Assembly (NCBI RefSeq): GCF_015706575.1
Contig: NW_024037060.1
Coordinates: 1,073,983-1,137,982 of the forward strand
Length of the DNA stretch: 64,000 nucleotides
Direction: 5' to 3'
DNA from: Patiria miniata
Taxonomy: Eukaryota
This document shows positions 3,534-41,884 of the stretch, piece by piece. The notes beneath the pieces were generated by a model that had not been told where the DNA came from, searched no databases, and was given only the letters and a program-made list of their open reading frames with translations. Position numbers and translations under genes: made by a program. The stretch's first letter is position 1; every line of letters begins with the position of its first letter.

Positions 3534-3795
3534 GTAAGAAAAATTATGAAGGCACAAATTGATTAATTTTCTATTTTTTTTATGAGATGGAAATAGATTC
3601 TGTTTCGTCCACGGGCTGCGAGAAACTAATCATTAGCTTACTTAGGTGGGACTTGAACCCAGGACCTCCTGGACTAGTGCAGATGTCTCAACATGACTAC
3701 GTTGTAGTACCATATTCAAACCATGGAATATTCATTGTCACATTGTAAATTGTCGTCTTAGATTCATTAAATACCTGTTTTGTGTTTTATCCAAG

Positions 3796-3996
3796 GACAA
3801 TGAATGCTGGCCACGTTTTAATTGGCATAGCTAGTCCTGTTATGATGTCAGCACCAACTGAATTATCAGCGGTCTGGTTCCCGCCTCACCAACGGACTAC
3901 GTCCACAGCCATTTCTTTGACCTCAGCAGGTTTTGGCATGTCCATGTCGTTTCTGGTGGGGCCATTAGTGGTCACAAGTCTTCCGCAAAATGCAAG
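3796..3996 (+). CDS. P1 exon 4/11
   Basis: ccaag|G acceptor, GCAAG|gtagta donor; 201 nt; ...[55 protein letters not shown] (TM4-5). Confidence 0.8.
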
Positions 3997-4254
3997 GTAG
4001 TAACCTTACCTATTTGGTTAGTTTCACGTTTGATCTTTTTTTAGAGCAACTGATCTTTGGAAAGAGAACTAATTGAAATCAATTGTCTCTTTTGACAATG
4101 GAAAAGAAGGTTTACTTTTGTTAAATTGAAGAATTATGAATTGTTAAAATGTTCCTCTTAATATCGCTAAGCTGTTACCAAATAATGTTTTTGTTGAATA
4201 AAAAAAAGAAGAAAAAAAAGACACTGCATTGTAACAGTGAATATTTGGTTTCAG

Positions 4255-4328
4255 TTCAAATGCAGAATCCATAGACCCAAAGGAGAAAGCACTGTACTTC
4301 AATGAGATAATGAAGTTAATGTATATAG
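4255..4328 (+). CDS. P1 exon 5/11
   Basis: tttcag|T acceptor, ATAG|gtatgt donor; 74 nt; SSNAESIDPKEKALYFNEIMKLMYI (cytoplasmic loop). Confidence 0.75.
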
Positions 4329-4595
4329 GTATGTACAAACTGTTGTCTTTCCAAAAAGTTACAGGGCTTAATGTTTTGGTCGTAGTAAAACTTCAGTTAA
4401 GGCAAACAGAATGTTGCCTGTAACAAAGATCTAACTGTATTTCAGTAAGTAAGCAGTCTGCAGCAATTTAGTCTTTTAAATATTCGTTGTCAGATTTGAT
4501 TCCAAAAAGGGAGGCTTCGTGATTTGTTTTTAATTTTGTTGAAGTTGAAAAAAAAACCATAAAAGACTTCCCTGAAAAGTCATTTGACTGTTGAA

Positions 4596-4722
4596 CCCAC
4601 TGCTGTTCCGGATTTAAACCAGCCGGAAACCAAACCAACCAAGGTGGTCGAGTGATTAAACATGATTGCGCTTTTAACCAAAATGTTGTTGGCTCAAGTC
4701 CCACCTGAGCAAGCTTGAGGCT
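4596..4722. mobile_element. tRNA-derived SINE-like relic (D-arm-like GTGGTCGAGTGATTAAAC, T-arm-like GGCTCAAGTCCCACC) in intron 5; orthologous in all + paralogs
   Basis: The same element sits at 26160-26290, 36850-36990 and 47095-47230. No acceptor-stem pairing, so it is not a functional tRNA. A second relic (GGGTTCAAGTCCCACC on the minus strand) is in intron 3 (3640-3700 and paralogous sites). Confidence 0.4.
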
Positions 4723-4869
4723 TTTATTTTCTGACTAGTCGCCAGACAGTGTTTAGTGTATATAAATTGCTGCGAGTGCCTATTAAATAACATTGGGGAA
4801 GGGTGAAACCTAATGTAAACAATAGATATTACACACATTTGTATTATTTGTTTTCATTTGATGTTTCAG

Positions 4870-4999
4870 AATGTGGAGCTGTGGCCGTCGTGGTCATCGC
4901 GGCTCTATTGTACTTCCCTGAGAAGCCACCAACCTCGCCCAGCTTATCTGCCACCAAACCTCGGGAAAGCTTCAAAGATGGAGCCCTGAAGATGATCAA
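4870..4999 (+). CDS. P1 exon 6/11
   Basis: tttcag|AA acceptor, ATCAA|gttagt donor; 130 nt; ECGAVAVVVIAALLYFPEKPPTSPSLSATKPRESFKDGALKMI (TM6). Confidence 0.8.
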
Positions 5000-5169
5000 G
5001 TTAGTCTTTAGACAACTGTCCAAAAATTGAAAGAAGAAAACTTCATTTTCAATTTTTTAAGAAACATGCTTTAATTCAATCAAGTGTCAACACGTATTAA
5101 TCATAATCCTTAACTCTGAAACAGCTAAAGATTAAAAGAGTCCCATTTTTGTTGAATATTTGATTAAAG

Positions 5170-5281
5170 GAGCACCCATTTTTGGATTCCTGCGGCAGCC
5201 TACAGCATATCATCTGGAGTTTACAGTGGCTGGACCACGCAAATGGACACAATTTTCAAGAATACTCTGAATATAGGACAG
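5170..5281 (+). CDS. P1 exon 7/11
   Basis: ttaaag|G acceptor (an alternative AG lies 3 nt downstream), GACAG|gtaaca donor; 112 nt; KSTHFWIPAAAYSISSGVYSGWTTQMDTIFKNTLNIGQ (TM7). Confidence 0.7.
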
Positions 5282-5454
5282 GTAACAATCACAGTATTCA
5301 AAATTATTTATAATCGCTGAAAGTTTTGTTTAGTACAAGTGCGGCACTGTCCAATATGCTATGCTATGTCTCTGTTGAGTTGTGCTTAGCTGTGTTGTGT
5401 GATTTAGCCATGTTAGCGGATGAATTTCTAATATTTGGGTGGGGTTTTTTTCAG

Positions 5455-5522
5455 GACACTGTTGGTTGGATTGGATTCATCTCCAATATTGCCGGGATGC
5501 TGGGAGGCTTGATAGTTGCAAG
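5455..5522 (+). CDS. P1 exon 8/11
   Basis: tttttcag|GAC acceptor, GCAAG|gtgagt donor; 68 nt; DTVGWIGFISNIAGMLGGLIVA (TM8). Confidence 0.8.
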
Positions 5523-5979
5523 GTGAGTGGTGCAACAGTGTCACAAAAGTTTCACTTCAGTAGAAAAAATTGCTCCTCGTTGAGCTTTGGTCCCAATGGA
5601 GGATCAAGGAGGGCGCTGGGGGGGGGGGGGGCTTAGTCCCCTTAAACTCTCCAGTAAGGTTAAAAAGTCTGGATCTTAAGCTCTGACATTTTGTAGTTTA
5701 CATGTATGTGCCTGGGTTGGTCTACCTTTCCACTCCCCATTTTATAAAATGTACCAGTCCATTGACCTGTGTGGTTAGATTAGGTGGGTGATAAGGCATA
5801 CAGGATCACCAGGTCAGTGCCACGCTCATGTAGATGGTCACACAGGGTGAAAGTTTTCCATATGGTGGGTTAAAAATCCTCGAAAAAATCATGCATTCAG
5901 ATGCTGATCTGGATCACTTCCAAATGAAATTAACTATTATTAACTATTTTATCTCTCCTTGTTTTTGTGACTTCACCAG

Positions 5980-6098
5980 ACTTGTAGACATCCTAGGCGG
6001 TAGGATGAAGGCAGTATTGATTTCACTCACCCTGGCAGCCTTCGTTAGCTGTGTATGGTGTGTCCTACTCTCAATGAAGTATATCTCATACAGTTTAG
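5980..6098 (+). CDS. P1 exon 9/11
   Basis: tcaccag|A acceptor, TTAG|gtgagt donor; 119 nt; RLVDILGGRMKAVLISLTLAAFVSCVWCVLLSMKYISYSL (TM9). Confidence 0.8.
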
Positions 6099-6463
6099 GT
6101 GAGTAACATGAGATAGTGTCGAAAAAAATGTAATGCGCACTTTTTATGTAAGTCGTGTGTGCTTCAACTTCAAGTTGAGATTATCTGAAAGATTGTGAAA
6201 TTGAAGCAGATACGGGCAAATTTCTAACAGGGGTGCAGAGTTTCGAAATTTTCAGGTTGTTTTATTTATCTTAAAAAGCTTCATAAGAAAATGTGAACAC
6301 CCCTAATAAAAAAATATGAAATATGACAGTCACCCAGGTTTTACAAATGTTTTAAGCTTATATCAGACATACATTGCAAGTGTTTTCAATGTTTATTTTT
6401 GGGAATTGTTTATTGGACATTCACCTATATTTGATTCTGTGATTTGTTTCTCTTTGGTTGCAG

Positions 6464-6646
6464 TGAGTGTCTACATTGCATGTATCTTCATTGGACTTTT
6501 CATCAACGCCTCCTTCCCCATATACTTTGAGATCACGGTCGAGGGCATGTATCCTGTCTCGGAAGGCAACATAACAATGGTGATGACATTCCTGACCAAT
6601 GTGGTTTCTGTGATATTCCTGTTGCTGCCGATGATTCCAAATCTAA
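6464..6646 (+). CDS. P1 exon 10/11
   Basis: ggttgcag|TG acceptor, CTAA|gtaagt donor; 183 nt; VSVYIACIFIGLFINASFPIYFEITVEGMYPVSEGNITMVMTFLTNVVSVIFLLLPMIPNL (TM10-11). The acceptor was chosen by homology to P5, since the ORF reads through upstream. Confidence 0.75.
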
Positions 6647-6823
6647 GTAAGTTCAAAATTCTGAAATAACTGAGGCTGCTACCACCGTCACAATGGACTC
6701 AGTGCGCAAACAAGAGAGGGCGCTTTTTCTACCACTTTTGAGAGCCATGTGGACGGGAGACATCATGTGCCCGTTCTGGTTCATGCACCTGCAGCATGAA
6801 GGAGGCATGACTAGTTTTGTTTT

Positions 6824-7098
6824 CAGGGGCTGATCCAGAACACAATTTTTTTTGGGGGGGGGCCAAAAAAATGTTGGTCCCCAAAAAGTGGGTCCAAGAA
6901 TATAACTGTGTGGGTTTTGGGGACCGCTTAAGGGCCCCCCCCCCCCCCCAATTTTTTTTTGGATTTTAGTGGTGTGATCTGTGGTGCGATCTGAGGCAAT
7001 TTTCTGACCACTTTGACCCAATTTTTTTGAGGAAAAGATGGTGGTGTACGCAGTGCCTGCCTTTATGACCCCCCCCCCCCCCCCCGGATCTGCCCTTG
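6824..7098. mobile_element. MITE family A (TIR CAAGGGCGGATCCAG, G/C homopolymers) in P1 intron 10; the copy is orthologous in P1-P4
   Basis: Terminal CAGGGGCTGATCCAG ... CCGGATCTGCCCTTG; the same insertion site occurs in P2 (28500-28713), P3 (39393-39670) and P4 (49414-49731). Confidence 0.7.
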
Positions 7099-8561: not shown

Positions 8562-9037
8562 TCAAGGGCGGATCCAGGGGGGGGGGGGCATCCCCCCCCC
8601 CCCAAAAACGAAACCAATTTTTTTTTTTTGTATGTGACATTGCAATAAAGGCAGGCAATGAGTACACCACCATCTTTTCCTCAAAAAAAAATTGGTGAAA
8701 GTGGTCAGAAATTGCCTCAGATCGCAGAGCATCTAGAATCCAAAATGTTTTCGGGGCCCTTAACCCTTAATACCAAAACGAAACCAATTTTTTTTTTTTT
8801 TTGTATGTGACATTGCAATAAAGGCAGGCAATGAGTACACCACCATCTTTTCCTCAAAAAAACATTGGTGAAAGTGGTCAGAAATTGCCTCAGATCGCAG
8901 AGCATCTAGAATCCAAAATGTTTTCGGGGCCCTTAAGCGGGCCCCGAACCCCACGCCGTAATTTTTTTGACCCACTTTTTTTGGGGACCACAATTTTTTT
9001 TGGCCCCCCCAAAAAATGTATTCAGGATCCGCCCTTG
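8562..9037. mobile_element. MITE family A copy, opposite orientation, with an internal roughly 150-bp duplication
   Basis: CAAGGGCGGATCCAGGGGG...CAGGATCCGCCCTTG; inserted into the second copy of a local roughly 250-bp tandem repeat (8270-9230), whose first copy gives the empty site. Confidence 0.65.
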
Positions 9038-9806: not shown

Positions 9807-12114
9807 TATTGTCCTCTTCTAGGGCTAATTTCATATTTGATTATTCTAACTTGGATTGATTGAATATTCAAATATATGAATTGCACCGATCAAAATTAAC
9901 TGGCACTTGAATTATCATGTTTTTAATTCATAATTTTCTCTCATTAACTAAGTTATGAACTTGCCAATGAGACGTTGCACGCAAATCTTCTGACAGTATG
10001 ACGGTTAAGTTTGAATTGGAGTGACTTGCTCCCAAGTTTTGACAGTATTTCTTCTATATCCCCCTGGACTGTGTGGAGTACTAAGTGTAATACAGCATTA
10101 TTACTTTTAAAAAGTACAGTTTTTTTCCCACAATTAGTGGGTATGTGGAAGACTGACATACTAACTTTGCAACTCATATTTGCTTGTATTCCCACATCTT
10201 CTCAACCAAGAAGTATTGAGGGCATTATTTCATTTAATTGTTTATTTTGATAGTTATTCACCAAAGTAAAATTAATTTTGTTTTAAAATCAACTAACTTG
10301 TAATTAATAGAATGTTTTGAAGCATTAGGGTTGTAATGGGATTTTTGGATTTTTGTTTTGTTTTGTTTTGTTGTTGTTGTTTTTTTGGGATTTTGTTTAT
10401 GATTGTAAAGCGCCTTGAACGTCAATTTGAAGGATTTGGCGCTATATAAGGATTTAATTATTATTATTATTATTAATAAGAAAACGGTGCAAGACATGAC
10501 TTTTGACGGAATGCTTGCCTCAGAGAGACATAGATTGTAATTTTGCTTGAACACCTGTGCAAGTTTGTTGTATTGTTATCTCACCAGCTCATGGAAACCA
10601 CTGAATATATAATGAGTAAATAACAAAGATATTTAAACTTACAAGATATTTTCACATCAAAGGTGTATTAATATTAACATGTAACATGTATCACTCAGGT
10701 CACCTGTAAAGTGAATATAATAATTACATAATGTACATAGGTCTACATATTAATATTACAGGCAATGTTAACTTTTAATGAGGCTTTATCAATGCTATTG
10801 CATTTCCGATAACATTAAGAGGTGTTCAAGGCAGTGCTTATGTATCGAAGGTGGTTCGTTCTTAAATTTATACAAACTTAAAAAAAATAAATTTTCCAAC
10901 AATGTACATTGATAAAGATGATACTCGTTTTTCGTGTGTATAATGCTTGAAATTATACACACGAAATAATGCTACCATGACTGTAAATTTAATTGGTATA
11001 TTTTTTAAATTCAAAACAAATAGTCGACTTTTATCCAATTTCTCGTCACCCCAATCATGATTGCTGCCTTATGCCATTGAATTTAAACTAAACTTTTTTC
11101 TAGACGGTTTGACGCAAGTCTTGTAAATATGGGTAAAATGTTGGTGGTTTTTGTTAGATGATTATTTGAGTTATGATTAATTGTATTTCCTTTTGTAGTA
11201 CATATATGTGGCAATTATGGTGAAACTTCAAACCGATTGTTGCACTAAAAACATTTGTTATAAAAAAATATCAATAGAAACCAAGTCTTTCACATACTGC
11301 CATGTTTTATTTAAATGTCAATTATTTTAAGGATAGTCATAAATTAACATGAAATCATACGGTGGGCAGAAAAGTGATATTGTACTTTATTATTATATCA
11401 CAAATTTGACATAAGCCTATCGTTGTTTATTGCCATAACAAGAGAAAAAGAAAAAAGAAGATTCCATTCATGCGACTACCGCAGCCATTGTTTAATATAA
11501 CATCAATTTATAACATTTTTAAACACCTTGCAAAGCAATAATGCCGTACATTTTTCTTAGTTTTGTGCTGGAGAATTTCACTTTATTTATTAAGTAAACG
11601 CTTCAGATTTCAAATATGCACTTGTTATTTTTCAAAGCTGGGTTGGGGCAACCTTGAAATTATAAAGCAAATAATTCTGCGCAAAATTACTGCATTTATT
11701 AATGTTACTCGAGAAAAATTAATATTAACAAAGTTCATGAAGTACAAAATAATGATACCAGTTGGTATGAATAAAACATGGCCATTTGCTTTTACTACCA
11801 AAATTTTAGCATTTTTGCATCAGTTCTGTATGAGTAAATTTTAATAAACGCTTTTAATGAAAACCATTTGCTAAAATCTGATTAGTTTGCTGCACTGTTA
11901 GCGTTTACTTCGTTTCGTACGAATAATAAAAAAGGAGTATATATTTGCTGCAGAGTTCAACTAATATATTTCAAAGCTGGATTGTGGCTTCCTTGAAGAT
12001 ATAAAAGCAAATACTTTTGCGCAAAAACTACTACGTTTTAAAATGTGGATCGCGAAAAATTAATATACAAAAGTTCATAAAGTACAAATAATACCATATC
12101 GTATGAATAAATAC

Positions 12115-12420
12115 TGGCATTTGCGTATGCACGCGCTGCCGCTCCTGATCGGATGAGCTATAGTATAGAATCGATTTAAACAAAAATGAACTCGATTTGT
12201 ACTCCCAGTACCACTCCTGGAGCCGAGTACCGAGTCCAAAACCACCAACGAGTCCGCGCCAAAATAATCGAATACGGGCCGAGTCCAAATAATTTTCGAG
12301 TACTCAGAGTCGGGCCGATCGAGTGCTTGCGTGTAGTACTCGAGTTGTTCAACACTGCTAATTTTTGGCAACCGCTTGACATTGAGAAATCTTACCCCTG
12401 GACTTTTCCATTTCACGATA
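12115..12420. repeat. Unit-boundary repeat of the tandem array
   Basis: 12115-12420 matches 1-300; 43310-43620 also matches, as does 32700-32830 in part (atttgcgtatgcacgcgctg(c/t)cgctcctgatcggatgagct...cttgacattgagcaatctcacccatttaataatgggatggtccaacta). Confidence 0.7.
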
Positions 12421-12424
12421 GTGA

Positions 12425-13090
12425 GGTACCTTAGTGAAAAAATCGTGACACAGTGGACAAAAGCACCATTTTTTCACCAAAGCATCTCCATGGTATACCT
12501 TTTCGAAAAAAAAGACGGACGCAAAAAATTGGATGAAAAAATATAAATTGATAATAATCTTCAGAACTACAAGCATTACAACAACAAATGTGGTATCAAA
12601 TTAAAGGGGACAGCAAGCTCTTTCATTTGAGTGGTATGTCATGGGGATGGAATATAGTTAAGGGTGATTTTGTGGGTCAAACAGACCCCTTTTTGGGGTC
12701 AAAAGACATGTTTTTAGGCTAAAATCATGGATTTTGGGTAGTCACATTGGCACCTTGTTTTAACATGCAAACAGTCTGTGGTATTGTGAGATGTTGCTTT
12801 TAAGTTCGAGAGAAAAGTTCAAATTCTATGCCAAAACAGTTTTTGTAATTGATTATTAGTATCATAAATATGTTTAAACTTGTTCCAAAGACAAGCGGAA
12901 AAGTGAGGCATCTTATAGCGAGCTACATTAGTAACAAAAATGCTATTAGGATCGTTACATGGTATTTAAAAGCACCATTTTTTTCACCAAAGCTTTGCCA
13001 ATGTGTTACGATCAAAAATAGGGTAGGATGCAAAAAATCGGATGACAGGAAGGGTACTTTATGACGTTATAATGACGTCACAATATACTA
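12425..13090. repeat. Left arm of a roughly 670-bp complex inverted repeat (partner 19215-19906)
   Basis: 12436-12840 is the reverse complement of 19490-19906; 12900-13080 is the reverse complement of 19230-19400. Together they bracket about 6.1 kb inside a roughly 10-kb block that exists only between P1 and P2. Confidence 0.6.
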
Positions 13091-15059
13091 CCAAGCTCGT
13101 ACAGTAATTAATTGTAGAAAATAAGGTCGTGAAGCGTTGTGATGAGATTCCAAGTAATTAATTTGACATTTTGAGGGTCAGGGAATTGAAGAGTGATATA
13201 ATCAGTGACATTTAAGTAACAATAAGCTGATTTGCTGTTGCAGTGACGTCACTATTTTCAAATTTTCTTGAAAAATCTAAGCATTTTTTGATTATGGACA
13301 AAAGTGCTACAATGACGGTATTCGTCACGCAGAAAATAAATTGTGTGAAATTGTGCGGCTCCTTGAATTTGGTCTTTACCACATCCATTTGTTTTGACCA
13401 TTTACTATAGCTGGAAGACGTAACATTCTTATATGTGTTGTATATTACGGGTAATGAGGTATGGGTTAGGAGCCAGACAAAAAAGGAACGTGGTAACCTG
13501 AAATAGATTAACAGAGTGGCCGGAAATGGTGATGGTATTTCCTTTAACAATGTATTACAAACGGGGGCCGCCCGATAGTCCGAAGGTCCAATAGTCCGAA
13601 GGTTCTTTAGTCCGAAGGTTCGATAGTTCAAATCAGGGGCGGATCCAGGATTTTCAAAAAGGGGGGCACAAAAACTTTGTGCGCGTTGCACACATAACGA
13701 GACTGAAGCGCGAAATCCCTTGCGGGCAGGGTTGAGGGCACTGGAAGCTCTACGATTCTAGATGTTCTCTCCTACATCATGAGTACTTTAAGCCATTAAG
13801 AGCAAAATTCACAATGTTTATTTTTTACTTTTAATAACACTATTTTTGCCTATCAAATATAGAATTTAAAGTCACTGTTGATGTAAGTTGAAAATGAACC
13901 CCAAAATTAGAAGGTGCTGATGACAGCCCCCGGGTGAAAAATATGAACATGTGTTATTTTGCGAGCGAGCGGAGCGAGCGAGCCAAAAAAAAGTCATGTT
14001 TACTATTAAAACATACATTTCTACCCAGAAATTTGCCTTGCAAACAAAGAAAATAAAATAAATTGAATTTCATTAGGGGACAGCCTGCCCCAAGCAGCCC
14101 CTACCCCACCCCACCCCACGGCTGAGCAAATCAACCGGCCCAGAAAATTTCTCCGTCCCAATTCCTTTGAAAAATGTTGTATAACTTATAAGCCTGCTGA
14201 GTATTACATTACGAATAGTCTTTACAAACAAAAAGAAGAAATAAAACTTTATTTCAAAACCATCTCGGTTGTCATAAAAAAAATTGATGATATTAGCAAA
14301 ATTTCCCCGTAGCGTTTAAATGTTTAGTCAAGACTTCAAAAAGACTGCCGCCTGTGTCCCAGTATAATGTGAGGTAACTGCGGTCACATATATACTAACT
14401 TTGTATATACACTTGTATACACTTTAACCACCATTTTTTTCCATGTTCTTTTGAAGTCTGCTGGCTAAATAATTTAAGACGAAATGAATCGTCTGCATTC
14501 TGCAAGTGTTGTCGAATCACTTCAAGAAATGTCAAGGCCTGAGGAAAATCGTTTATTTGTATTTTTTTGGGGGGGGGCGCCGATTTTCTTAAAAAGAAAA
14601 CAAAAAAAAACAAACTTTAATTTAACGGAAATGCAAACTACATCAAAATTCCAAATTCCAAAATATGAAAAAGTTTGTCTGCACAAATTTCCCGAAAGTG
14701 GCAGCATTCCTGAGCTGTTATCAAAGGCCTTAAAGTTCGGTGGCCTACAGCTGAACCCAAATGTATATGCTTTGTAATGAACAAGAGTAGCATTGTATCA
14801 ATTTGAACAATGCGGCTATCAATCATTCTCTGGAAAGGCTTTTCGGAGCTGAGATTTTATTTGGGCATTTGTTTTCCTCAGAGACAGGGGAAACCTTTAT
14901 GCGAAAAATGTGGGAAACTGAATTGAACGTGAAATTTCACCTCCGTGTTGTGTACATGCACATAGATAAACGATTGGGGGATGATATTCCAAGTCCAAAT
15001 AATTCATTAAATGTAGGGCTCCCGATGTCTTTTTTCGTAGTACGATTTTATTCTTCGCT

Positions 15060-15780
15060 TATTAAAAAAATAAAACTGCATGGCCTACATTATTTTTGTA
15101 AATGTTACTCTAAAATATTTCGGAATACATTTTGAAATTAAGTTTGAAGTCAAAGGGCTGTTGATAATCTTATTCGTATTCCTTTTAAAATTAGGAAAAA
15201 CTAAGCATAATTCGTATTAAAATTTCCCCTGGAATCTACAAAAGAATTAACTGAGGGTTCAGAACTTAATGGGCTAGGGTAGTTGAAATCGTTTTACTTT
15301 AAAAATAAATCGAGAGAACAAGACATACTAAATCGTATTAAAATAACCCCTATTTATTTGATTTCTCTCTATTTGAGGCAAAAGGGATGACGATTAATTC
15401 TTCGTGTATCTAAAAAATAAAATGCATGGCCTACATTATTTTGTGAAAATGTTTTACTCTAGAATATATTTTGGAATATATTTTGACGCTATTATTTGAG
15501 GGATGTTGTTAATCCTGATCATATTCATTTAAAAATAAGAAAAACCGAGCATAATTCGTATTAAATTTCCCCTGGAATCTACAAAAGAATTAACTTCGAG
15601 TACAAACTTTAACGAACTAGGTTTTTTTTAATCATTTTGCTTTTAAAAAAAAAGTTTTTGTAGAGAACCAGACGTAAATCTCTCTCTGAGGCCGGGAAAA
15701 TAAAAGAAGGGGAAGGCGATTTTATTCTTCATTTATTAAAAAAAACACATAGCCTACATAATTTCGTGTACCGGTACATG
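15060..15780. repeat. Roughly 355-bp tandem repeat (2 full units plus the start of a third)
   Basis: Units begin ...aaaataaaa(c)tgcatggcctacattatttt... at about 15068, 15418 and 15738 and share ...gcataattcgtattaaa(a)tttcccctggaatctacaaaagaattaact... Confidence 0.55.
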
Positions 15781-15782
15781 TT

Positions 15783-16141
15783 CTACTCAAGGGTGGATCC
15801 AGAACACAATTTTTGGGTGGGCCAAAACAAATTTTTGGTCCCCCCCCCCCAAAAAAAGTTTTGGTCCCCCCAAAAAGTGGGTCAAAAAAATTACGGCGTG
15901 GGGTTCGGGGCCCGCTTAAGGGCCCCGAAATTTTTTTGGATTCTAGATACTCTGTGGTGCGATCTGAGGCAATTTCTGACCACTTTAACCACTGTTTTAT
16001 TGAGGAAAAGATGGTGGTGTACTCATTGCCTGCCTTTATTGCGATGTCACATAAAAAAAAAAAATTGGTTTCGTTTTTTTTTGGGGGGGGGGGGGCATGG
16101 CCCCCTTTGCCCCCCCCCCCCCCCCCCCGGATCCGCCCTTG
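15783..16141. mobile_element. MITE family A copy inserted in the third unit of a roughly 355-bp tandem repeat
   Basis: CAAGGGTGGATCCAG...CCGGATCCGCCCTTG; flanks ctactc...ctactctagaatatattttggaata match the uninterrupted units at 15100 and 15460. Confidence 0.65.
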
Positions 16142-16727
16142 GCTCTACTCTAGAATATATTTTGGAATACATTTTGACATGAAGCATTAAATGCAAGTGC
16201 TGTATTAAATGTGCCCCTAGTGCAGCCGGGAAATAAAAAAGTGTCTTATAAAAATATATTCTTGCTTTGAAAGAAATTTTGAGACAATGATTGACAGGCG
16301 ACCTTCAAAACTTATACATTGTATATTTTTGTTGATAATTATGTATAATAGTTATGTTCCAAGCGATTGATTTGATGACCGCCCGTCCGCCCGCCATAAT
16401 GACTCCTCAAAAAGGAAAAAGATAGCCATGTTCTCAAAGGGATGTATTTAATGCGCGCCCGCCCTAAGATAACTCGTTAAAAAAAAAAATAAAAAAAAAC
16501 AGTTGCAAAAAGGGGGGCACGGGCCTGGTGTGCCCCCATCTGGATCCGCGCGTGGTTCAAATGCACAAAATTTCCATAAGAGGGGGTTCGTTGGTCCGAA
16601 AATGAAATAAGGTTCGTTAATCCGAACATTTGATGCAATAGTCCGAAGGTTCATTAATCCGAAGGTTCATTAGTCTGAAGGTTTATTTCTCCGAAGGTTC
16701 GATAGTCCGAATCGGTGATGTAGTGCC

Positions 16728-16850
16728 TTGATGCTGGGCCTTGGCCTTAAGGCTGCCTTAAGGCTGGACTTTAGGGCCTTGGCCTTGGCCTCGAGGCTTG
16801 AGGGCAAAAGCCTTGGCCTTGGCCTTGGCCTTGTCTACTGCGAAGGTGAA
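16728..16850. repeat. (GGCCTT)n-like microsatellite
   Basis: ggccttggccttaaggctgccttaaggctg...gccttggccttggccttg. Confidence 0.6.
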
Positions 16851-19214
16851 AAGAAAGAATGGTTTTGGAAAGAATGCATGCGACATGTTAAATGCCGTCA
16901 TGTAGCATGGACAGGGTAACCAATAGCACACATCAATCTGCATGGAATTGAAAACTTGCGGTACTTTATCTGAAAGGAAAAGAGGACCTAATTTTAGCAT
17001 AGTTAATGTTTTGCAAGTTGCTATCGATTTGTTGCTTCTACAATGTTTTCATATGTGAAGCTTGCTGACTGAAAAATGCACCTACTTCAACAGTTACGAG
17101 TTTCAAATTTGATAATATAATGAACCTTGCTTTTCAGTGTGGAACAGACCTTGCCAGCTTTATCCAGAGGAGGGACGAGGAATGCAGCAAGACGGGAGTA
17201 ACTCTCAAGACATACCATGGACCATTTCTTCAGTTCTTTAATGAGGTGACAGTGGCAAAGCTGTTTCGAGATGACCGTTTGTGGTATTAAAGTTTTAAAA
17301 TAACACATAAAGGTTTTCTGAAAATTTGGGAAGTTCATTTTTTACAATAAACTGATACAAAATAATGTATTTTGTGAAAAGTGACGCAATAACATTTGGA
17401 AAGAAACTTAACCTTTTTCAACAGCTTGTGCTCATCTAGTAAATAATTATCTGAAGTTGCTTCCCTTCAAGATGAATCAGAACAATTTATACCAAGTTTT
17501 GAAAAATCTACTTTCAAGATTAGGCAATTGTTAATAAGATTTATAATGAATTACAAGACAATTCAGCAAGTCTATCTGTAAAATTGGCAATTTGAAGAAA
17601 TCAAATGCTGAACTTAAAGTACAAATCTTGAATATCATCCAACTTCTATTGGGGAGAACCGGAGAACCACAAGATGGGTTCAAACTCAAAGTTAAAATTG
17701 ACTGAATCTGAGGGAGAGGGTGACGATATTACGGAAACTAAAATATAACATCCACTTATTAAAGGGAATATACATCATTTGCTTTTGCTGTAATTTTCAG
17801 AAATGGATGGAATTGGGGGGTTGGAAATATAAAGCAAATATAGTTACACTGACTTTTTGGAGGTTTTGGGTTCGAAAATGCTATAAAAACCAAGAAAAAC
17901 GATCATTTTCCTGTAGTCTGGTTCCCTGACTCCATATAAGAAGAAACAGAGCAGTTTACATACATTGGGGAATTGTAAGGTCAGGGAACCAGTCTAGCTG
18001 GCTCGTACCCGTTCATAGGTTTGTAATCGATTGCAAACAAGTGCAATGGTCAATTGGGGCCAGTATTTGAAAAAAAGCCAGTTGTTTCCAACGCTGATCG
18101 GCCGATCAGCGTTGGAAATTGATACAAAAATACCACTTTTCTTGAAAATGACAGTATACCAGGTGCCATAATTTTACAGGATGCTTTAGACTGTCATTTA
18201 CCAACATCCTGTTAAGGTATTTCGCAAAAACTTGGTAGTTTTATTTTTCGATGTTTACAAATGTTGTATATTCCCTTTAAGCAATGATGTCATTTGATGC
18301 AGGTCAGGTCGGTTGTTTTTGTTTGTCTTTTGTTAAAAAACAACCAAGACATGTTGGTTAGAATTCTGACTAATATAGATAGGTTGAAAAGCAAACCATT
18401 TCAGATTGGTTATTTTAAGCAATAGATTGGTTGGACACATATCTACCAACCACATTGGTTGAATTTGACTAATATATTGATTTCAACCAATTTGTTTTTA
18501 GAGTGTAGACACATGGATTACAAGATACGAGAACTGTTCGATTGCCTCATTGATGTTCTCCGAGGTCACCGTGTTAAAATTACAAAAAGTGTTAATTGTA
18601 GAAGGTTGTGAATCTTTTCTTTCAAAACTGAGGGAGGAATTATTGCAGTCATATTTATTTTATCGTCAATGTAAAATTGTGTCTTATTTCATTTTGTTCC
18701 CGGGTATTTTCTTGTTTTTTCTTTAGTGTGTGTATTTAATCTGAGTGTAGACCTATGTATGTCAACTAGGTTGTTTGTTTCTATGGGTTGCATTTTTCTC
18801 TCTGGGGAATGGGATTGCTTTTGTTTCTCGGTTTTGTTTTGTTTTGTTTTGTTTGTAATAATCTCTTTAGCCCGTTTGTCATTCGTTCCCGTTATTGAGT
18901 CTGAAGGGTTTAGGGCAATAAATGCATTGCCAGTTGATGTAGAATACGGAGCCGAAGGGACAGTAGAATAGCTACTAACGAATCATTGATCACAACAGGG
19001 GATAGGAGCGAGGGTCAAATGTACATGTACATACATGTTTAATTTAATACATTAAATTAGGAAACATCCCTCATTTTATCAAACTATTTGTATTTAAATC
19101 TTTTAAAGATAGTCTAAGAACAAAATTGGCAACTGCACTGATTTCCTTGATCTCAGAAACGTATATTAAATGTAAAAAAAACGATCCATGGCTTATTCCT
19201 AGATAATATTTCAA

Positions 19215-19906
19215 TTTTAATGTATAAGTGTTTAATAATTAGCCGATGACGTCATAATGATGTCATAAATGGCCCTTCCCATCATCCAATTTTTTGCATC
19301 CTACCTTTTTTTCGAAAACGTAAACAATGGAGATGCTTTGGTGTGAAAATGGTGCTTTTCTCCACCCGTGTCACGATTTTATCACCAAGGTACCTCACTT
19401 TTCCGCTTATCTTTGGAACACTAAACATTTAAGATACTAATAATCAATTACAAAAACTCTTTAAGCATAGAATTTGAGCCTTTCTCTCTGACTTCAAAAC
19501 AACATCTCACAATACCACATACTGTTTGCATGTTAAAACAAAGTGTCAAAGTGACTACCCAAAATCCATGATTTTAGCCCCAAAAAACGGTCTTTTGACC
19601 AAAAAGGTTTTTTTGACCCACAAAATCACCCTCAACTATATTCCATCCCAATGACATACCACTCAAATGAAAGATCTTGTTGTCCCCTTTAATTTGATAC
19701 CAAATTTGTTGTTGAGATGCTCGCAGTTCTGAAGATTATTATTAATTTATATTTTTTCATGTAATAATTAGCTGATGACGTCATAATGACGTCATACATG
19801 CCCTTTCCATCATTCAATTTTTTGCGTCCGTCTTTTTTTCGAAAAGGTATACCATGGAGATGCTTTGGTGAAAAAATGGTGCTTTTGTCCACTGTGTAAC
19901 GATCCT
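19215..19906. repeat. Right arm of the complex inverted repeat
   Basis: See the left arm. Confidence 0.6.
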
Positions 19907-20295
19907 TAGCATTTTTGTTACTAATTATAATGTACCTCACTACGAGGCGAAGCCGAGTGAACTGAGAAAGTCCAGATTTTACCGAGCGATAATATTCCTC
20001 CCATTTCACAATTTAAAGCCACTCAATATTTGTTTTATATAGCTGACATATAGATCCTTGTCATTTGATATATTTGAACTTTTTTCAATACAAAACTGAA
20101 GGAAAATCTATTTCTCTCTTCCAGATCACCCCTTCACGAAAATATTTGAACCTAACGCTGTAGCGCTGGCTCTTTGGAACAATACGCGCTACGCGCAACG
20201 CTGAACGCGCACACCAGCATTCATTTGCACACAAATACCGCGTCATGATCCTAACTGTTGAATAGTATTTCCCATTCCCCATGGGCGGATAGTAT

Positions 20296-20420
20296 CCAAA
20301 TACTTCGAGTGGTGTAGTAAAACTAGCCTCCCGAGGTGATGCATGGACATTCTATTTTCCCGAGGCAAAGCCAAGGGAAAATAGAATGCTCCATGGATCA
20401 CCGAGGGAGGCTAGTTTTAC
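20296..20420. repeat. Perfect roughly 48-bp-stem hairpin with loop GAGGCAAAGCCAAG
   Basis: tagtaaaactagcctcccgaggtgatgcatggacattctattttccc | gaggcaaagccaag | ggaaaatagaatgctccatggatcaccgagggaggctagttttact. Confidence 0.6.
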
Positions 20421-20583
20421 TTCACCAAGAGATAAAGCATTCAATACAGGCGCGGTTCTAGAACCAATATTTTTGGGGGGCTAGCACGGTCGATCCAGAA
20501 ATTTTTTTCAGGGAGGCGTGCTGAAATGTTGACCGGTTATTTTTTCCAGACACTTAGGCCTCCGAAGATCAATAGGTGGTGGT

Positions 20584-20621
<38 letters not shown>
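20584..20621. repeat. Poly-G tract (about 38 G)
   Basis: Uninterrupted G run inside the hAT-like element; similar C/G runs occur at 1289-1306 and inside MITE-A copies. Confidence 0.8.
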
Positions 20622-20680
20622 CTCATGCCATATTTTCAACGGGGAACGCCAATAAAATCCTAAAATCATTCACACTATAG

Positions 20681-21001
20681 CAAGGGCGGATCCAGAACAC
20701 AATTTTTTGTGGGGGGGGGGCCCAAAAAAAATTTGGTCCCCCAAAAAAGTGGGTCCAAAAAATTACGGCGTGGGGTTCGGGGCCCCGAACAATTTTTGGA
20801 TTCTAGATGCTCTGTGGTGCGATCTGAGGCAATTTCTGACCACTTTAACCAATTGTTTTTGAGGAAAAGATGGTGGTGCACTCATTGCCTGCCTTTATTG
20901 CGATGTCACATAAAACAAACAAAAATTGGTTTCGGTTTTTTTTTGGGGGGGGGGGCGATGGCCCCCTTTGGCCTCCCCTCCCCCTCCTGGATCCGCCCTT
21001 G
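20681..21001. mobile_element. MITE family A copy nested inside the hAT-like element
   Basis: CAAGGGCGGATCCAG...CTGGATCCGCCCTTG. Confidence 0.65.
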
Positions 21002-23353
21002 CACTATCTATACTACAATTCAAGGAATCTCTGTCTGTCTGTCCGTCTGTCTGTCTGTCTGTCTGTCCGCCGATTATCTCCAGAACTGGGCACCGTATGA
21101 AGTTGAAAATCGGCGGGTGTATTGCTCGGGACACCAGAATGTGCAGTGCCAAATTTGAAGGGGTTTGGAAGAGCGGTTGTCGAAAAAGCTGCAAAAAAGC
21201 AGCATTTTTTGAGACTCAACGTGGCAGAGTATAGCCTAGAACTCCACGCACTACTGTTCTTTTCAATTGTTTACGTCATGTTAAAGCTAAAGCGCGCGTG
21301 CTCAATATGACGCAAACAATGCAAAAAGGACGAGCACGCGCACGTGCATTGTAGGGCGATACCATTGTCCAGTATGGGTGAATAGCACTGCGTACCATAT
21401 GTTTCCGTACGTGATGACTGCACGGGCACATGCATTTTGCAGTCGATTGAACCACTATTGTAGGCGGTGGATTGAGCAACCTTACTCACGTAGGTGAGTA
21501 GCTGCACGGGCGTATTGGTGAATATCAGTGCCGGGGATGGCCTGGCGACATGTACAAAGTGCGCTCAACCTATGAGTGTGAGTTTAACATGTGAAAACAA
21601 CACAATTGAATCGTGTGCGTTGTTTGCATGATATGAGCATTTTGAAATTGCCCCTAACGAACAGGTGCATTTTTTTGACGGGCCCTGCAAAAATGACGGG
21701 CACATTGTAGGGAGATAAGCACTGCACACTATGTCTTCGTACGTACATATACGTGAGTAGCATGCACGGGCACATGCATTTTGTACTCAAATGAGCAACC
21801 ATCACTGCACTGTATGTGCCGGGGGGGGGGGGTGACGACATTTTGTGAGTTTAACTTGCGAGTGTGCTTTCACACCATTGAATAATGTGCGTTGTTTGCA
21901 CGAGCTGCAGTTCTCAACTGCCCCTTCCGAACACGCACATTTTCGACTGGCCCTGCACTAGTATTAACTAATGCACCCTTGTCACGGCTATTTCTTCTTT
22001 AGGGGGAGACCGTTCACATGTACATCACAATCCTTCTTTTTGCTAATGCAATTTGTTTTTTTACGGAATTTATTTTGGGGGGGCTAGACAAAATTTTTTG
22101 GGGGCTACAGCTCCCCCTAGCCCCCCCGTAGAACCGCGCCTGATTCAATATTTGTTTTTTTAACACTTCACCCACAGATTCTGCTTGATTTTAATATTTT
22201 AAATTATTTAAATCTGAACACAGTTGAAATTAACTTCAATTTCAATACAAAATTGGTGGAAAATGTATTTCTCTCTTAAAAACCACCCCTTCACGAAATG
22301 TTTGAACCGTAAGTCTGCGGCGCGCTCTCTTTGGAATAATGCGCGCTACGCACTACGCGCAACGCGCACACCAGCATGCATTTGCACACAAATACCGCGC
22401 CATGGAAATAGTACTTTGGTTGCTAATGGTATAGTACTTTGGTTGCTATGCGCATAGTACTTTTGGCCGTGCACAGAAAGATAGCAAAATTAGAAAGTAA
22501 CACGTGACTCGCTCTCGGCCAATCAAGACACAGAATCTGTGGGTGAGGTGTTATAATCCAAACAAGTACAAGTGCAGGCAGCACGTATACAGGCGCGGCT
22601 GTGTGAGTGTACGTGTACCGACGAAGTGTCAAAGTTTTCCGTCATTCAAATAGTTATACTCTTTCTGCACATTGAACTAAAATAACTGCTAAATGTGTTT
22701 TGTAACCAAAGCTTCGGCTCGTTACACCTACATGCAATTACTTGTGAAGGACGGTGGAATCGCAGGGCGGCCTCGGACTGGTTTTGTACACACTAGCTGA
22801 CTAGGCCTACGTACTGCTGCTGTTTAGCATGTTTAGATGATGTGCTATATTCTGTACGAATCTCGTGATCCGGCCATTCAACTTTTTTTAAGGCGATTGT
22901 GTAGGCCTAGGCGCAAGGCTACATGTATAGTTATTTCATCATAGTAGTACAGTGCAGTGTCCACCGGCCCCCTCTATCTTTTGGTCCTTAGGACGACTGT
23001 GCCAACATGCACGCCTAGCATGTCTGACTAAGCCTGACTTGCTATTGCGGCTTAATTTCCTTTCCTTAAATTGATCTTTGTTTTGTTCTAACCGGTTGTT
23101 TACATTTTAAAACTTTCTCCAATTCCTTCAGCTCAGTGACGTGCCATGCGTGTGTGGGTGGTAATCAGGTTATGAACTGCCCACATCTTTCAAGGGTCCT
23201 GCAAAAAGGATGTGGCAGGCTGCAGGCAGAGGCAGTCGCTATGTCTTAATTAAAGTCACCCTTGCTGCATCTGGTGCAGATACCAACAAATCCCACGCAG
23301 GTTGAGAGACCGCTAGTCACGACACTAGTTTGAATTGAACACATCAAGTAACC

Positions 23354-28499: not shown

Positions 28500-28713
28500 C
28501 AGGGGGCGATCCAGAACACAATTTTTTTGGGGGGGGGGGGCCAAAAAAATGTTGGTCCCCAAAAAGTGGGTCCAAGAATATAACTGCGTGGGTTTTGGGG
28601 TCCGCTTAAGGGCCCCCCAAATTTTTTTTGGATTCTAGTGGTGTGATCTGTGGTGCGATCTGAGGCAATTTTCTGACCACTTTGACCCAATTTTGACCCT
28701 GGATCTGCCCTTG
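28500..28713. mobile_element. MITE family A copy (P2 intron 10, internally deleted)
   Basis: CAGGGGGCGATCCAG...CTGGATCTGCCCTTG. Confidence 0.6.
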
Positions 28714-29005
28714 TTTATTTTGAATATGCATATAGCAATGTCATCTCGCATGAGCGTCAGGCGTCGGAAATGTATTGGAATGTCTCTCCCAGTGGTCTCC
28801 CCCAACTCTGCCCTTCTTACCGTTGAGGGGGTACTTGTGCACAGAGCCCATAGACTCGCCCATTATGCCCTGCCCAATTTTGTTTCAACCAATCACAGCC
28901 TTGAAGTCTAGCAACAAGTCCAATAAGTCCTCAGCAAATTTTTGTGCTGAGTAGCTGTATGAAATTGTGTTGGTCATTGATATTTTCCTCTTTGTTCGCC
29001 ATCAG

Positions 29006-29136: not shown

Positions 29137-30561
29137 TATTGTCCTCTTCTAGGGCTAATTTCATATTTGAGTATTCTAACTTGGACTTGATTGAATATTC
29201 AAATATATGAAATGCACCGATCAAAATTAACTGGCACTTGAATTATCATGTTTTTAATTCATAATTTTCTCTCATTAACTAAGTTATGAACTTGCCAATG
29301 AGACGTTGCACACAAATCTTCTGACAGTATTAAGGTTAAGTTTGAATTGGAGTGACCTGCTCCCAAGTTTTGACAGTATTTCTTCTATATCCCCCTGGAC
29401 TGTGTAGAGTACTAAGTGTAATACAGCATTATTACATTTAAAAAGTACAGTTTTCTCCCCACAGTAAGTGGGTATGTGGAAGACTGCCGTACTAATTTTG
29501 AAACTCATAATTTGCTTGTATTCCCACATCTTCTAAACCAAGAAGTATTTAGGGCATTATTTCATTTAATTGTTTATTTTGATAATTATTCACCGAAGTA
29601 AAATTAATTTTGTTTTAAAATCAACTAACTTGTAATTAATAGAATGTTTTGAAGCGTTAGGGTTGTAATAGAAAAACGGTGCAAGACATGACTTTTGATG
29701 GAATGCTTGCCTCAGAGAGACATTGCTTGAACACCTGTGCAAGTTTGTTGTATTGTTATCTCACCTGCTCATGGAAACCACTGAATATATAATGAGTAAA
29801 TAACAAAGATATTTAAACTTACAAGATATTTGCACAACGAAAGTGTTATTAATATTAACATGTAACATGTATCACTCAGGTCACCTGTAAAGTGAATATA
29901 ATAATTACATAATGTACATAGGTCTACATATTAATATTGCAGGGAATATTAACTTTTAATGAGGCTTCATCAATGCTATTGCATTTCCAATAATATTAAG
30001 AGGTGTTAAAGGCAGTGCTTATGTATCGAAGGTGGTTCATTCTTAAATTTTACACATTTATACAAACTTTTTATAATTTTTTTTCCAGCAATGTACATTG
30101 ATAAAGATGATACTCGTTTTTCATGTATATAATGCTTGAAATTATAAATGCTGGCATTTCTACCATGACTGTAAATTTAATTGGTATTTTTTTAAATTTA
30201 AAACAAATCGTCGACTTTTATCCAATTTCTTGTCACTCCAATCATGATTGCTGCCTTATGCCATTGAATTTAAACTAAACTTTTTTTCTAGACGGTTTGA
30301 CGCAAGTCTTGTAAATACGGGTAAAATGTTGGTTGTTTTTGTTAGAAGATTATTTGAGTGATGATTAATTGTATTTCCTTTTGTAGTACGTATATGTTGC
30401 AATTATGGTGAAACTTCAAACCGATTGTTGCACTAAAAACATTTGTTATAAAAATATCAATAGAAACCAAGTCTTTCACATACTGCCATGCTTTATTTAA
30501 ATGTCAGTTATTTTAAGGATAGTCATAAATTAACATGAAATCATATGGTGGGCAGAAAAGT

Positions 30562-31803
30562 ACGAAAGCCCATTAGCGCCACTGCAAGTATATATGTTGC
30601 GGAATATTTAATTCGTTATTATGGATTATTAATTCGTTATTACGGATTACTAATTCGTTATAACGGATTATTTAATTCGTTATTACGGATTATTAATTCG
30701 TTATTACGGATTATTAATTCGTTATTACGGATTATTAATTCGTTATTACGGATTATTAATTCGTTATAACGGATTATTTAATTCGTTATTACCGATTATT
30801 AATTCGTTATTACGGATTATTAATTCGTTATTACGGATTATTAATTCGTTATAACGGATTATTAATTCGTTATTACGGATTATTTAATTCGTTATTACGG
30901 ATTACTAATTCGTTATAACGGATTATTTAATTCGTTATTACGGATTATTAATTCGTTATTACGGATTATTAATTCGTTATGGATTATTAATTCGTTATAA
31001 CGGATTATTAATTCGTTATTACGGATTATTTAATTCGTTATTACGGATTACTAATTCGTTATAACGGATTATTTAATTCGTTATTACGGATTACTAATTC
31101 GTTATAACGGATTATTTAATTCGTTATTACGGATTATTAATTCGTTATTATGGATTACTAATTCGTTATTACGGATTATTTAATTCGTTATTACGGATTA
31201 TTAATTCGTTATTACGGATTATTAATTCGTTATTACGAATTACTCATACGTTCCGAGTCATTACTCGGCAAGTATGGCACAGGGTGCAAACGTTGTATGC
31301 AAAGATAGCGCCGCCTAGCGGCGCTATATACACAGGCCCCTGGTCACGTGCTCTCCAAGTGTGAGAACATCAGACCTAATTCGTAATAACGAATTAATAA
31401 TCCGTAATAACGAATTAAATAATCCGTAATAACGAATTAGTAATCCGTAATAACGAATAAGTAATCCGTAATAACGAATTAATAATCCGTAATAACAAAT
31501 TAGTAATCCGTAATAACGAATTAATAATCCGTAATAACGAATTAATAATCCGTAATAACGAATTAAATAATCGGTTATAACGAATTAATAATCCGTAATA
31601 ACCAATTAGTAATCCGTAATAACGAATTAATAATCCGTAATAACGAATTAATCATCCGTAATAACGAATTAATAATCCGTAATAAAGAATTAAATAATCC
31701 GTTATAACGAATTAATAATCCGTAATAACGAATTAATAATCCGTAATAACGAATTACATAATCTGTAACATATATACTTGCAGTGGCGCTAATGGGCTTT
31801 CGT
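30562..31803. mobile_element. Foldback-type element: long TIRs built from 23/24-bp tandem repeats around a 125-bp unique core; 8-bp TSD AGAAAAGT
   Basis: Termini ACGAAAGCCCATTAGCGCCACTGCAAGTATATATGTT / AACATATATACTTGCAGTGGCGCTAATGGGCTTTCGT. Arrays of TTATTAATTCGTTATTACGGAT-like units run 30602-31250 and, inverted, 31376-31770. TSD at 30554-30561 and 31804-31811. Uninterrupted empty sites ggtgggcagaaaagtgat occur at 11360, 41461 and 51548. Confidence 0.8.
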
Positions 31804-33074
31804 AGAAAAGTGATTGTACTTTATTATTGTGTCAATAACTTGACATAAACCTATCGGTGTTTTTTTGTAATTGCCAGAGAAAAAAAAGGGAAATATCAAG
31901 ATTCCATTCAAGTGTGTGGACTAACAGCCATTTTTGAATCGTAGTAATAATTTAATATTTATAACATTTTTAAAACACCTTACAGTGCCTTGATACACAT
32001 TTTTCTTAATTTGTGCTTGGGAATTAAATCGATAAATCTCGAATAACAACTTCAACAGTAGCTGCATTTTCAACGCACTGTCTTAAGATTAAGAATCTTA
32101 CGATTAACCACAACGGTACTAATTAAATACTAATTAAAGTTTGCATTGTTTGCAATCAACACATAGTTTGAACGTACTAAATTCTGGGGGAAAATGATGT
32201 ATTCAATGTCTGCGTAAATATATTTTCACAAATCTTGAAAACATATTGATATCAATTAAAATTTAGGTTGCACAACACGGTTCTTGGAAGATTTAGTAAT
32301 TGTAAACACATTATAGTTACTCTCTTTAACAACTTCGATTTTGTTTTTTTTATAATAGAATTCATGTTTTCAATTAAAATAAAACCAACATTTTCTATTT
32401 TTCGACGACTGCAACCCTCCGATTTGTTTTTCTTTTTGACTTTGGGTAGCGCTCTTCTTAACGTACACAAAAAAAAATCCGGATGAATTATTGTCAATCG
32501 CAAAAAATCGAAATTTGTAAAGTAATTATTCCATAACACTACACGTCAACTTGACATATTTTCGTTTGATGTCTCATTTAAAAGTAAATAACTTTTGCAT
32601 TTCCAGGAAAAAAAGCTAGCTCGTGCTAGTCTTTTTTACCTGCCAGCATCCGGGGTGCGTTACGTGTCCGGATGGTCCGGGTATAGGCGCGTGGGACTTG
32701 ACTAAAGGCTAATCGAGTGCTTGCGTGTAGTACTATACTACTATACTCGAGTTGTACAACACTGCTAATTTTTGGCAACCACTTGACATTGAGCAATCTC
32801 ACCCATTTAATAATGGGATGGTCCAACTAGCACGGTGAACTAAAATAAACTGCTAAATGTGTTTTGTTACCAAAGCTTCGGCAAATACAATATCTTATTA
32901 TTACAATTACATGCAATTACTTGTGAAGGACGGTGGAATCGCAGGGCGGCCTCGGACTGGTTTTGTACACACGGTAGGCTTACGTACTGCTGTTTGGCAT
33001 GTTTAGATGATGTGCAGTGTACGAATCTCGTGATAATCCGGCCATTCAACTTTTTTCAAGGCGATTGTGTACAA

Positions 33075-41878: not shown

Positions 41879-41884
41879 TACGTT

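Follow-up and report, generated by a model that had tools for sequence, protein, structure and literature searches.

The SLC49A4-like array and its enlarged spacer

The 64,000-nucleotide stretch of the bat star Patiria miniata genome analysed here (contig NW_024037060.1; hereafter the window, to which all positions refer) carries four tandem SLC49A4-like genes, P1-P4. The intergenic spacer from the 3' end of P1 to the start of P2 holds a block of extra DNA, much of which belongs to a single element with long inverted arms that we call E1. The genes were identified by a homologue search with a conceptual protein concatenated from + strand exons at 2150-6670. This exon model matches P. miniata 'solute carrier family 49 member 4 homolog' proteins, and the four proteins of the matched cluster map exon by exon onto the array, with all exons 100% identical:

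P1: 2150-9803, XP_038058424
P2: from 23354, XP_038058425
P3: from 34443, XP_038058418
P4: from ~44783, XP_038058426

Homologous anchors located by self-BLAST at 5452, 26999, 37717 and 47972 give unit lengths of 21,547, 10,718 and 10,255 bp. An earlier sequence-only reading of this DNA had put the P1-P2 spacing at 21 kb against 10-11 kb elsewhere, and the measured values (21.5, 10.7 and 10.3 kb) bear it out. The extra P1-P2 DNA spans 12398-22556 (10,159 bp) and splits a spacer repeat, which halts at 12397 and picks up again at ~22557-22574:

11751-12397, + strand: left half of the spacer repeat (the insertion target), ending ...ATCTTACCC; 88.6% identical to 42936-43589
22557-23281, + strand: right half of the spacer repeat; 22627-23281 matches 43690-44342 and 22574-22901 matches 327-679

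The last part of the left half also matches 1-267 and 32744-32804. The same repeat is unbroken in the P3-P4 spacer (42936-43589 / 43690-44342) and upstream of P1 (1-267 / 327-679), as is part of it in the P2-P3 spacer (32744-32804 / 32830-33071). The repeat is continuous at three paralogous sites, and the extra DNA is therefore specific to P1-P2: it interrupts a boundary repeat, as the sequence-only reading had proposed, and it is not found between every pair of paralogues. These comparisons confirm that the block accounts for the doubled P1-P2 unit length.

E1, an element bounded by long inverted arms

The long inverted arms first placed at 12425-13090 and 19215-19906 are real and slightly longer (12419-13090 versus 19228-19942), and they are the terminal inverted repeats (TIRs) of one foldback-type transposon:

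12419-19942, + strand: E1, non-autonomous foldback-type TIR transposon, 7,524 bp, termini TAGTGAGGTAC...GTACCTCACTA, 3-bp target-site duplication (TSD) CGA/CGA
12419-13090, + strand: E1 left TIR, 672 bp, composed of A (~120 bp, 3'-deleted), B (~370 bp) and A (~180 bp)
19228-19942, - strand: E1 right TIR, 715 bp, A-B-A, full length

Aligned globally, the arms give 563 matches, 69 mismatches and 123 gap columns, and are thus reverse-complementary along their length at 89% identity over ~630 aligned columns. Their outermost ~95 bp are 97% identical, and identity further inward is 77-88%. Each A unit carries the motif ATCGTGAC..TGG..AAAGCACCA, and full-length A copies end with paired ATGACGTCAT palindromes that are over-represented in the window (9 matches versus 1.4 expected), six of the nine lying inside the arms. 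In its substructure the TIR amounts to 1.3 copies of a ~545-bp unit. The middle of E1 measures 6.1 kb, of which at least 3.4 kb are later insertions; the remaining ~2.7 kb is non-coding and satellite-bearing, and includes the (GGCCTT)n microsatellite of the sequence-only reading, here found to be interrupted:

13575-13632, + strand: left part of a 16-bp minisatellite (TAGTCCGAAGGTTC..)n, which resumes at ~16599-16715 past a nested hAT element
16725-16833 (approximate), + strand: interrupted (GGCCTT)n microsatellite

TIRs of hundreds of base pairs, internal repeats and a non-coding, variable middle place E1 in the foldback structural class. Arms that are themselves complex modules with internal direct repeats, set around heterogeneous non-coding DNA, could also be read as two independently mobile, inverted ~690-bp A-B-A modules that captured ~6 kb in the manner of bacterial insertion sequence composites, and a composite-like lineage, KolobokP, has been reported from P. 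miniata itself (PMC9587614). We consider a composite of this kind unlikely: the arm has no short inverted ends of its own (outer end TAGTGAGG, inner end ATGACGTCA), the 64 kb contain no solo arm, and the later insertions that make up so much of the middle bring their own TSDs. Moreover, the direct terminal repeats and TTAA duplications of KolobokP are not seen in E1, which has inverted arms and CGA, and a second element, E2 (below), has the same ends as E1 around a 226-bp spacer, a plain foldback architecture.

E1 lies in the loop of a hairpin repeat

The DNA on either side of E1 belongs to a ~510-bp MITE-like repeat (MITE, miniature inverted-repeat transposable element), the X family, which consists of a ~170-bp near-perfect hairpin and a ~340-bp core with its own TIRs of ~25-40 bp. 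Two copies, X1 and X2, lie head to tail on the right side of the block, where a 1.7-kb hAT element interrupts X2, and a third lies in the P3-P4 spacer. They are the repeat modules that the sequence-only reading had seen to be shared with ~41640:

12398-12418, + strand: X1 left-arm remnant and left TSD copy, 21 nt, CTGGACTTTTCCATTTCA followed by CGA at 12416-12418 (full 21 nt CTGGACTTTTCCATTTCACGA)
19943-20289, + strand: X1 remainder, with right CGA (19943-19945), loop, right arm and 3'-truncated X core
20290-20446, + strand: X2, first part, near-perfect hairpin 20310-20427 with loop GAGGCAAAGCC, up to the hAT insertion site
22151-22556, + strand: X2, second part, hairpin tail and X core, with TIR TTAACACTTCACCCACAGATTCTG and its reverse complement
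41518-42028, - strand: X3, full-length copy (hairpin and core), 511 bp, P3-P4 spacer

The right end of X2 is intact at GGTGTTATAA, against the target TCCAAAC. X3, whose hairpin has the loop GAGGCAAAGCC and a minimum free energy of -109.5 kcal/mol under RNA parameters, is matched by a precise empty site in the P1-P2 spacer (11418) and lacks a clear TSD (at most 1 bp).

The 21 nt at 12398-12418 pair with the right hairpin arm of X1 at 19957-19975. When E1 and one CGA are removed, the flanks read CTGGACTTTTCCATTTCA-CGA-GGCGAAGCCGAGTGAACTGAGAAAGTCCAG (that is, ...TTTCA-CGA-GGCGAAGCCGAGTGAA..., with ...TTTCACGAGGCGAAGCC... as the reconstructed empty X1 loop). The rebuilt stem carries the loop CGAGGCGAAGCCGAG (C-GAGGCRAAGCCRA-G), as in X2 and X3, with which the reconstructed X1 is colinear in alignment. 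Since removal rebuilds the X1 hairpin, E1 is a single insertion into the X1 loop with a 3-bp TSD. With TAGTGAGGTAC at both ends, CGA/CGA flanks and a host restored on removal, E1 has the properties of a class II TIR element, and the suggestion that the arms bound a discrete element of this type holds.

The left limit of the block is of another kind. The junction 12397/12398 is a truncation and not the end of a transposable element: ~17 bp of target (ATTTAATAATGGGATGG) are gone, and some 65 nt of the X1 left hairpin arm appear to be missing as well.

These flanks also bear on the proposal that the block is a palindromic rearrangement product, its arms derived from a local inverted duplication (by fold-back repair or template switching) and not from transposition. 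Long arms that are 89% identical with several indels are what such an event could leave, and the 21 nt that precede the left arm are indeed reverse-complementary to DNA right of the right arm, which might be taken as the duplication reaching further out. However, this outer complementarity is the hairpin stem of the X family, which has two other copies. The loop is single-copy with exactly 3 bp duplicated, as insertion predicts, whereas a rearrangement would need a precise 11-nt loop deletion in addition. The unlinked E2, furthermore, shares its 11-nt termini and 27-nt subterminal motif with E1 and has a 3-bp duplication of its own. We regard a rearrangement origin as highly improbable.

A second member of the E family

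The second element stands at an unrelated site far to the right of the block:

54923-56199, unstranded: E2, 1,277 bp, ~520-bp TIRs and 226-bp spacer, TSD CTA/CTA (54920-54922 / 56200-56202)

E2 begins and finishes with TAGTCAGGTGG, then ATCGTGACCGACTGGTCCAAAGCACCA. E1 and E2 share only ~60 nt, at their ends. The only four instances of the terminal sequence TAGTSAGGTRS in the 64 kb mark the ends of the two elements (0.11 expected), and the 27-nt subterminal pattern likewise has four occurrences, at the same four ends (0 expected). The linker between the two motifs is 12 nt at one end and 22-28 nt at the other in both elements. Membership of E1 in a family is supported by this one relative with the same 11-nt terminus and 27-nt subterminal motif (n=2). 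Both targets read A|CNA|GGC: ACGAGGC for E1 (12416-12418/19943-19951) and ACTAGGC for E2 (54919-54922/56200-56205). The shared target, together with the landing of E1 exactly in the loop of a hairpin repeat, may reflect a target preference (n=2).

Three further readings were rejected. A TA duplication of the Tc1/mariner type would put 5 surplus nt into the X1 loop and turn the CGA/CGA and CTA/CTA matches into coincidence (~1 in 4,000). Against a TRIM/LTR-like reading (terminal-repeat retrotransposon in miniature / long terminal repeat), in which A would be a small LTR, no primer-binding site lies beside A, and the two A-B-A blocks form the opposite, inverted termini of a single insertion. A DIRS/Ngaro split repeat is contradicted by the TSD, and neither a reverse transcriptase nor a tyrosine recombinase has left a remnant.

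Elements nested within E1 and X2

Five further insertions were delimited inside E1 and X2. The sequence-only reading had anticipated the hAT-like element downstream of the arms, which we place at 20447-22142 with its TIR and a perfect 8-bp TSD, and the MITE-A copies of the block, of which two were located:

13634-16554, unstranded: 2.9-kb hAT-type non-autonomous element in E1, TIRs CAGGGGCGGATCCAG / CACGCGCGGATCCAG, TSD GTTCAAAT 8/8 (13626-13633 / 16555-16562)
15788-16141, unstranded: MITE-A copy in the 2.9-kb hAT, TIR CAAGGGYGGATCC, TSD GTTCTACT / GCTCTACT (7/8)
17763-18276, unstranded: Kolobok-like MITE in E1, 19-nt TIR AGGGAATATACAWCATTTG (one mismatch), TTAA TSD (17759-17762 / 18277-18280), AG...CT ends
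20447-22142, unstranded: 1.7-kb hAT-type non-autonomous element in X2, 1,696 bp, TIR CAGGCGCGGTTCTA, TSD ATTCAATA 8/8 (20439-20446 / 22143-22150)
20681-21001, unstranded: MITE-A copy in the 1.7-kb hAT, both TIRs CAAGGGCGGATCCAG with no mismatch, TSD CACTATAG / CACTATCT (6/8)

The 2.9-kb hAT splits the 16-bp minisatellite of E1 and holds a two-copy tandem repeat at 15042-15653. A 355-bp tandem repeat had been claimed here; the repeat is present, but its dimensions differ, with two ~270-bp copies at a 348-bp offset that are 79% identical (15042-15309 / 15390-15653). In the 1.7-kb hAT, whose terminus CAGGCGCGGTTCTA is found only at 20447 (+) and 22142 (-), we find a poly-G run (20584-20621) and (TCTG)n in addition to the MITE-A copy. 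The Kolobok-like MITE is edged TTAA|AGGGAATATAC...GTATATTCCCT|TTAA, showing both the duplication and the ends of Kolobok, and it contains the perfect 34-bp palindrome reported within 18083-18118, now placed at 18085-18118.

The 8-bp TSDs and the TIRs CAGGG.., CAAGG.. and CAGGC.. (YARNG-like) of the nested elements and MITE-A are those of hAT elements. Across the window the 8-bp flanking repeats of MITE-A agree at 6-8 of 8 positions (copies scored 7/8, 6/8, 7/8 and 6/8), which makes MITE-A a hAT-type MITE. TIRs of the same type stand at 13634 and 16554, the ends of the 2.9-kb hAT. MITE-A, with its G/C homopolymer tracts, is also frequent near the gene units (6824-7098, 8563-9037, 28504-28714, 38167-38379, 39394-39671 and 49414-49731). 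Copies adjoin the penultimate coding exon on its downstream side in each paralogue, and this shared position indicates that MITE-A was present before the array was duplicated.

Coding content and wider searches

The block had been described as holding no convincing genes, and no protein domain was found in any frame. The suggested check for transposase or helitron-like open reading frames (ORFs), run against Pfam, gave no match for the ten longest ORFs of the block or for six-frame translations of 13000-19300 with stops masked, and ten ORFs of at least 60 aa from 20-22.6 kb also had no Pfam match, with nothing above noise. Rep and helicase domains are absent from all frames, and a Helitron, with 5'-TC...CTRR-3' ends and A^T insertion without a TSD, was rejected as a candidate: every junction that could be resolved shows TIRs and TSDs. 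Scanned over its full length for tRNA and Rfam families, the window gave no match, which speaks against a tRNA-derived short interspersed element and against any known RNA. An exact 21-mer from the arm had no match in metagenome and viral contigs.

At the orthologous locus of Acanthaster planci, E-family and MITE-A motifs are absent. There, in DF978612.1 (797622-826151), the closest homologue adjoins an opposite-orientation major facilitator superfamily (MFS) paralogue, with a TEP1-like gene upstream, and the locus contains none of the P. miniata repeat motifs.

A probable nest of insertions in one spacer

Taken together, at least eight insertions on four nesting levels, plus one small deletion, make up the block. 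X1 and X2 occupy the first level, in the spacer; E1 (in X1) and the 1.7-kb hAT (in X2) the second; the 2.9-kb hAT and the Kolobok-like MITE (both in E1) and one MITE-A copy (in the 1.7-kb hAT) the third; and the other MITE-A copy (in the 2.9-kb hAT) the fourth. The block is thus built from separate, stacked insertions, every one with TIRs and a TSD of its own, and is not the large composite element that had been suggested; very probably, non-autonomous DNA transposons accumulated here one inside another, within a single intergenic spacer.

An order of events can be inferred from the nesting. Two head-to-tail X copies of ~510 bp would first have come to lie in the spacer repeat. E1 would then have entered the X1 hairpin loop, duplicating CGA, and the 1.7-kb hAT the X2 hairpin arm, with an 8-bp TSD. 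Lastly, hAT-type and Kolobok-type elements would have entered E1, and MITE-A copies both hATs. A deletion of ~80 bp, which nesting does not fix in this order, would have taken the X1 left end and 17 bp of target and so made the junction 12397/12398. Because E1 has no coding capacity, it presumably moved in trans. A transposase encoded elsewhere may recognise both the termini (TAGTSAGGT) and the subterminal motif ATCGTGAC-N9-AAAGCACCA, and mobilise the element by cut-and-paste with a 3-nt staggered cut at the target. Divergence between the E1 arms is 11%, close to that between paralogous spacers, which suggests that E1 is an old and now immobile copy.

Several observations weigh against this interpretation. 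The stem formed by the E1 flanks is complementary at 16 of 21 positions, weaker than the near-perfect hairpins of X2 and X3. The duplication could be read as 2 bp (CG) or 4 bp (ACGA) if the termini of E1 were asymmetric by one base, and the 3-bp value comes from two elements of a family seen within this 64-kb window alone. The arms, 11% diverged, differ by large indels, so that E1 is old and probably immobile, and neither E1 nor E2 yielded a transposase or coding remnant by which to place its superfamily. Finally, the left block junction matches no transposable element end and calls for an extra deletion or an assembly join.

This last point raises the question of an assembly artefact, in which part of the block, above all the 12397/12398 junction or the inverted arms, would stem from a mis-join or from collapsed haplotypes. 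Assembly has difficulty with inverted repeats and poly-G runs, and the junction is, as noted, not an element end. The window sequence, however, contains no Ns; all other junctions of the block are matched TIR/TSD pairs, and their removal restores a coherent host, which a chimera would not do. We therefore give an artefact very little weight against the nested-transposon interpretation.

If the block is such a nest, the doubled array unit is explained by ordinary transposon accumulation, with no need for an unusual rearrangement or a hidden gene, and the nested TSDs date at least eight insertion events relative to one another. The termini, subterminal motif and TSD length of E1 and E2 can be used to curate a P. 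miniata repeat family and to search for its transposase. Nothing points to a new biological mechanism; mild novelty lies only in a sea-star foldback family with a 3-bp TSD.

Other insertions in the array spacers

Two features outside the block were noted in passing. In the P3-P4 spacer, ~470 bp at 42094-42564 are absent from the P1-P2 spacer, where the flanking matches are 11418-11482 and 11474-11835; this is probably another small insertion. The P2-P3 spacer carries a classical FB/TU-like foldback transposon at 30562-31803, with a 35-bp unique outer TIR (ACGAAAGCCCATTAGCGCCACTGCAAGTATATATG), followed by 21-bp tandem repeats that number 30 on one arm and 18.5, inverted, on the opposite one, and a perfect 8-bp TSD AGAAAAGT (30554-30561 / 31804-31811). 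It is missing from three paralogous spacers, with an empty site at 51555-51562.

Comparison with known transposon systems

The nested hATs and MITE-A, none of which contains a transposase, resemble the hAT superfamily in their 8-bp TSDs and short TIRs starting with CA, and are assigned to it by TSD length and termini only. For the element at 17763-18276, a TTAA duplication could also suggest piggyBac, which has CCC...GGG ends, but these ends are lacking. Kolobok elements duplicate TTAA and have 5'-RR...YY-3' ends, KolobokP being composite-like with direct terminal repeats (PMC9587614). With its TTAA TSD and AG...CT ends the element is like Kolobok MITEs, as a single copy with no transposase.

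Among elements with 3-bp duplications, CACTA/EnSpm (CMC) transposons have repeated subterminal motifs and large non-autonomous derivatives. E1 and E2 agree with them in TSD length (CGA, CTA), but their termini, 5'-TAGTG/TAGTC...CACTA/GACTA-3', are the reverse of the CACTA/EnSpm 5'-CACTA/CACTG...TAGTG-3', and their TIRs greatly exceed the usual 10-30 bp. PIF/Harbinger elements duplicate the 3 bp TWA (TAA/TTA), which differs from both CGA and CTA.

In architecture, E1 and E2 are like the foldbacks of Drosophila (FB, Tetris, Galileo) and sea urchin (TU): the TIRs are long and internally repetitive, with a short, conserved domain on the outside, the middle is variable and does not code, and copies are non-autonomous. 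The foldbacks, however, carry arrays of short tandem repeats, whereas the TIR of E1 is instead built of 1.3 copies of its ~545-bp unit. The TSD of FB is 9 bp and that of Galileo 7 bp. Tetris has been described with the same foldback architecture and TSDs of 8-10 bp, in a study that also refers to a sea-urchin foldback element (Liebermann et al. 1983; cited in PMC4079207). E1 and E2 depart from the 8-10 bp of Tetris and from the FB/Tetris (Mutator-like) pattern, and their 3-bp TSD excludes Mutator-like and P-like foldbacks.

The closest analogue is found in Tc4/Tc5 of C. elegans (TcMar-Tc4), which combine a foldback shape with a 3-bp duplication within a longer preferred target. Tc4, which cuts C|TNA|G so that TNA is duplicated, has been reported so far only from nematodes, arthropods and tardigrades (PMC11071193). 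The triplets of E1 and E2 are CGA and CTA and not TNA, their targets are A|CGA|GGC and A|CTA|GGC and not CTNAG, and no Tc4-type transposase was found in either. We raise, as a tentative suggestion that we hold to be doubtful for now, that E1 and E2 define a foldback family undescribed in asteroid echinoderms, characterised by TAGTSAGGT termini, the ATCGTGAC..AAAGCACCA motif, asymmetric linkers and a 3-bp duplication at A|CNA|GGC, and that its autonomous partner could belong to a 3-bp-TSD lineage unreported in deuterostomes, for example a Tc4-like clade of hitherto only ecdysozoan record.

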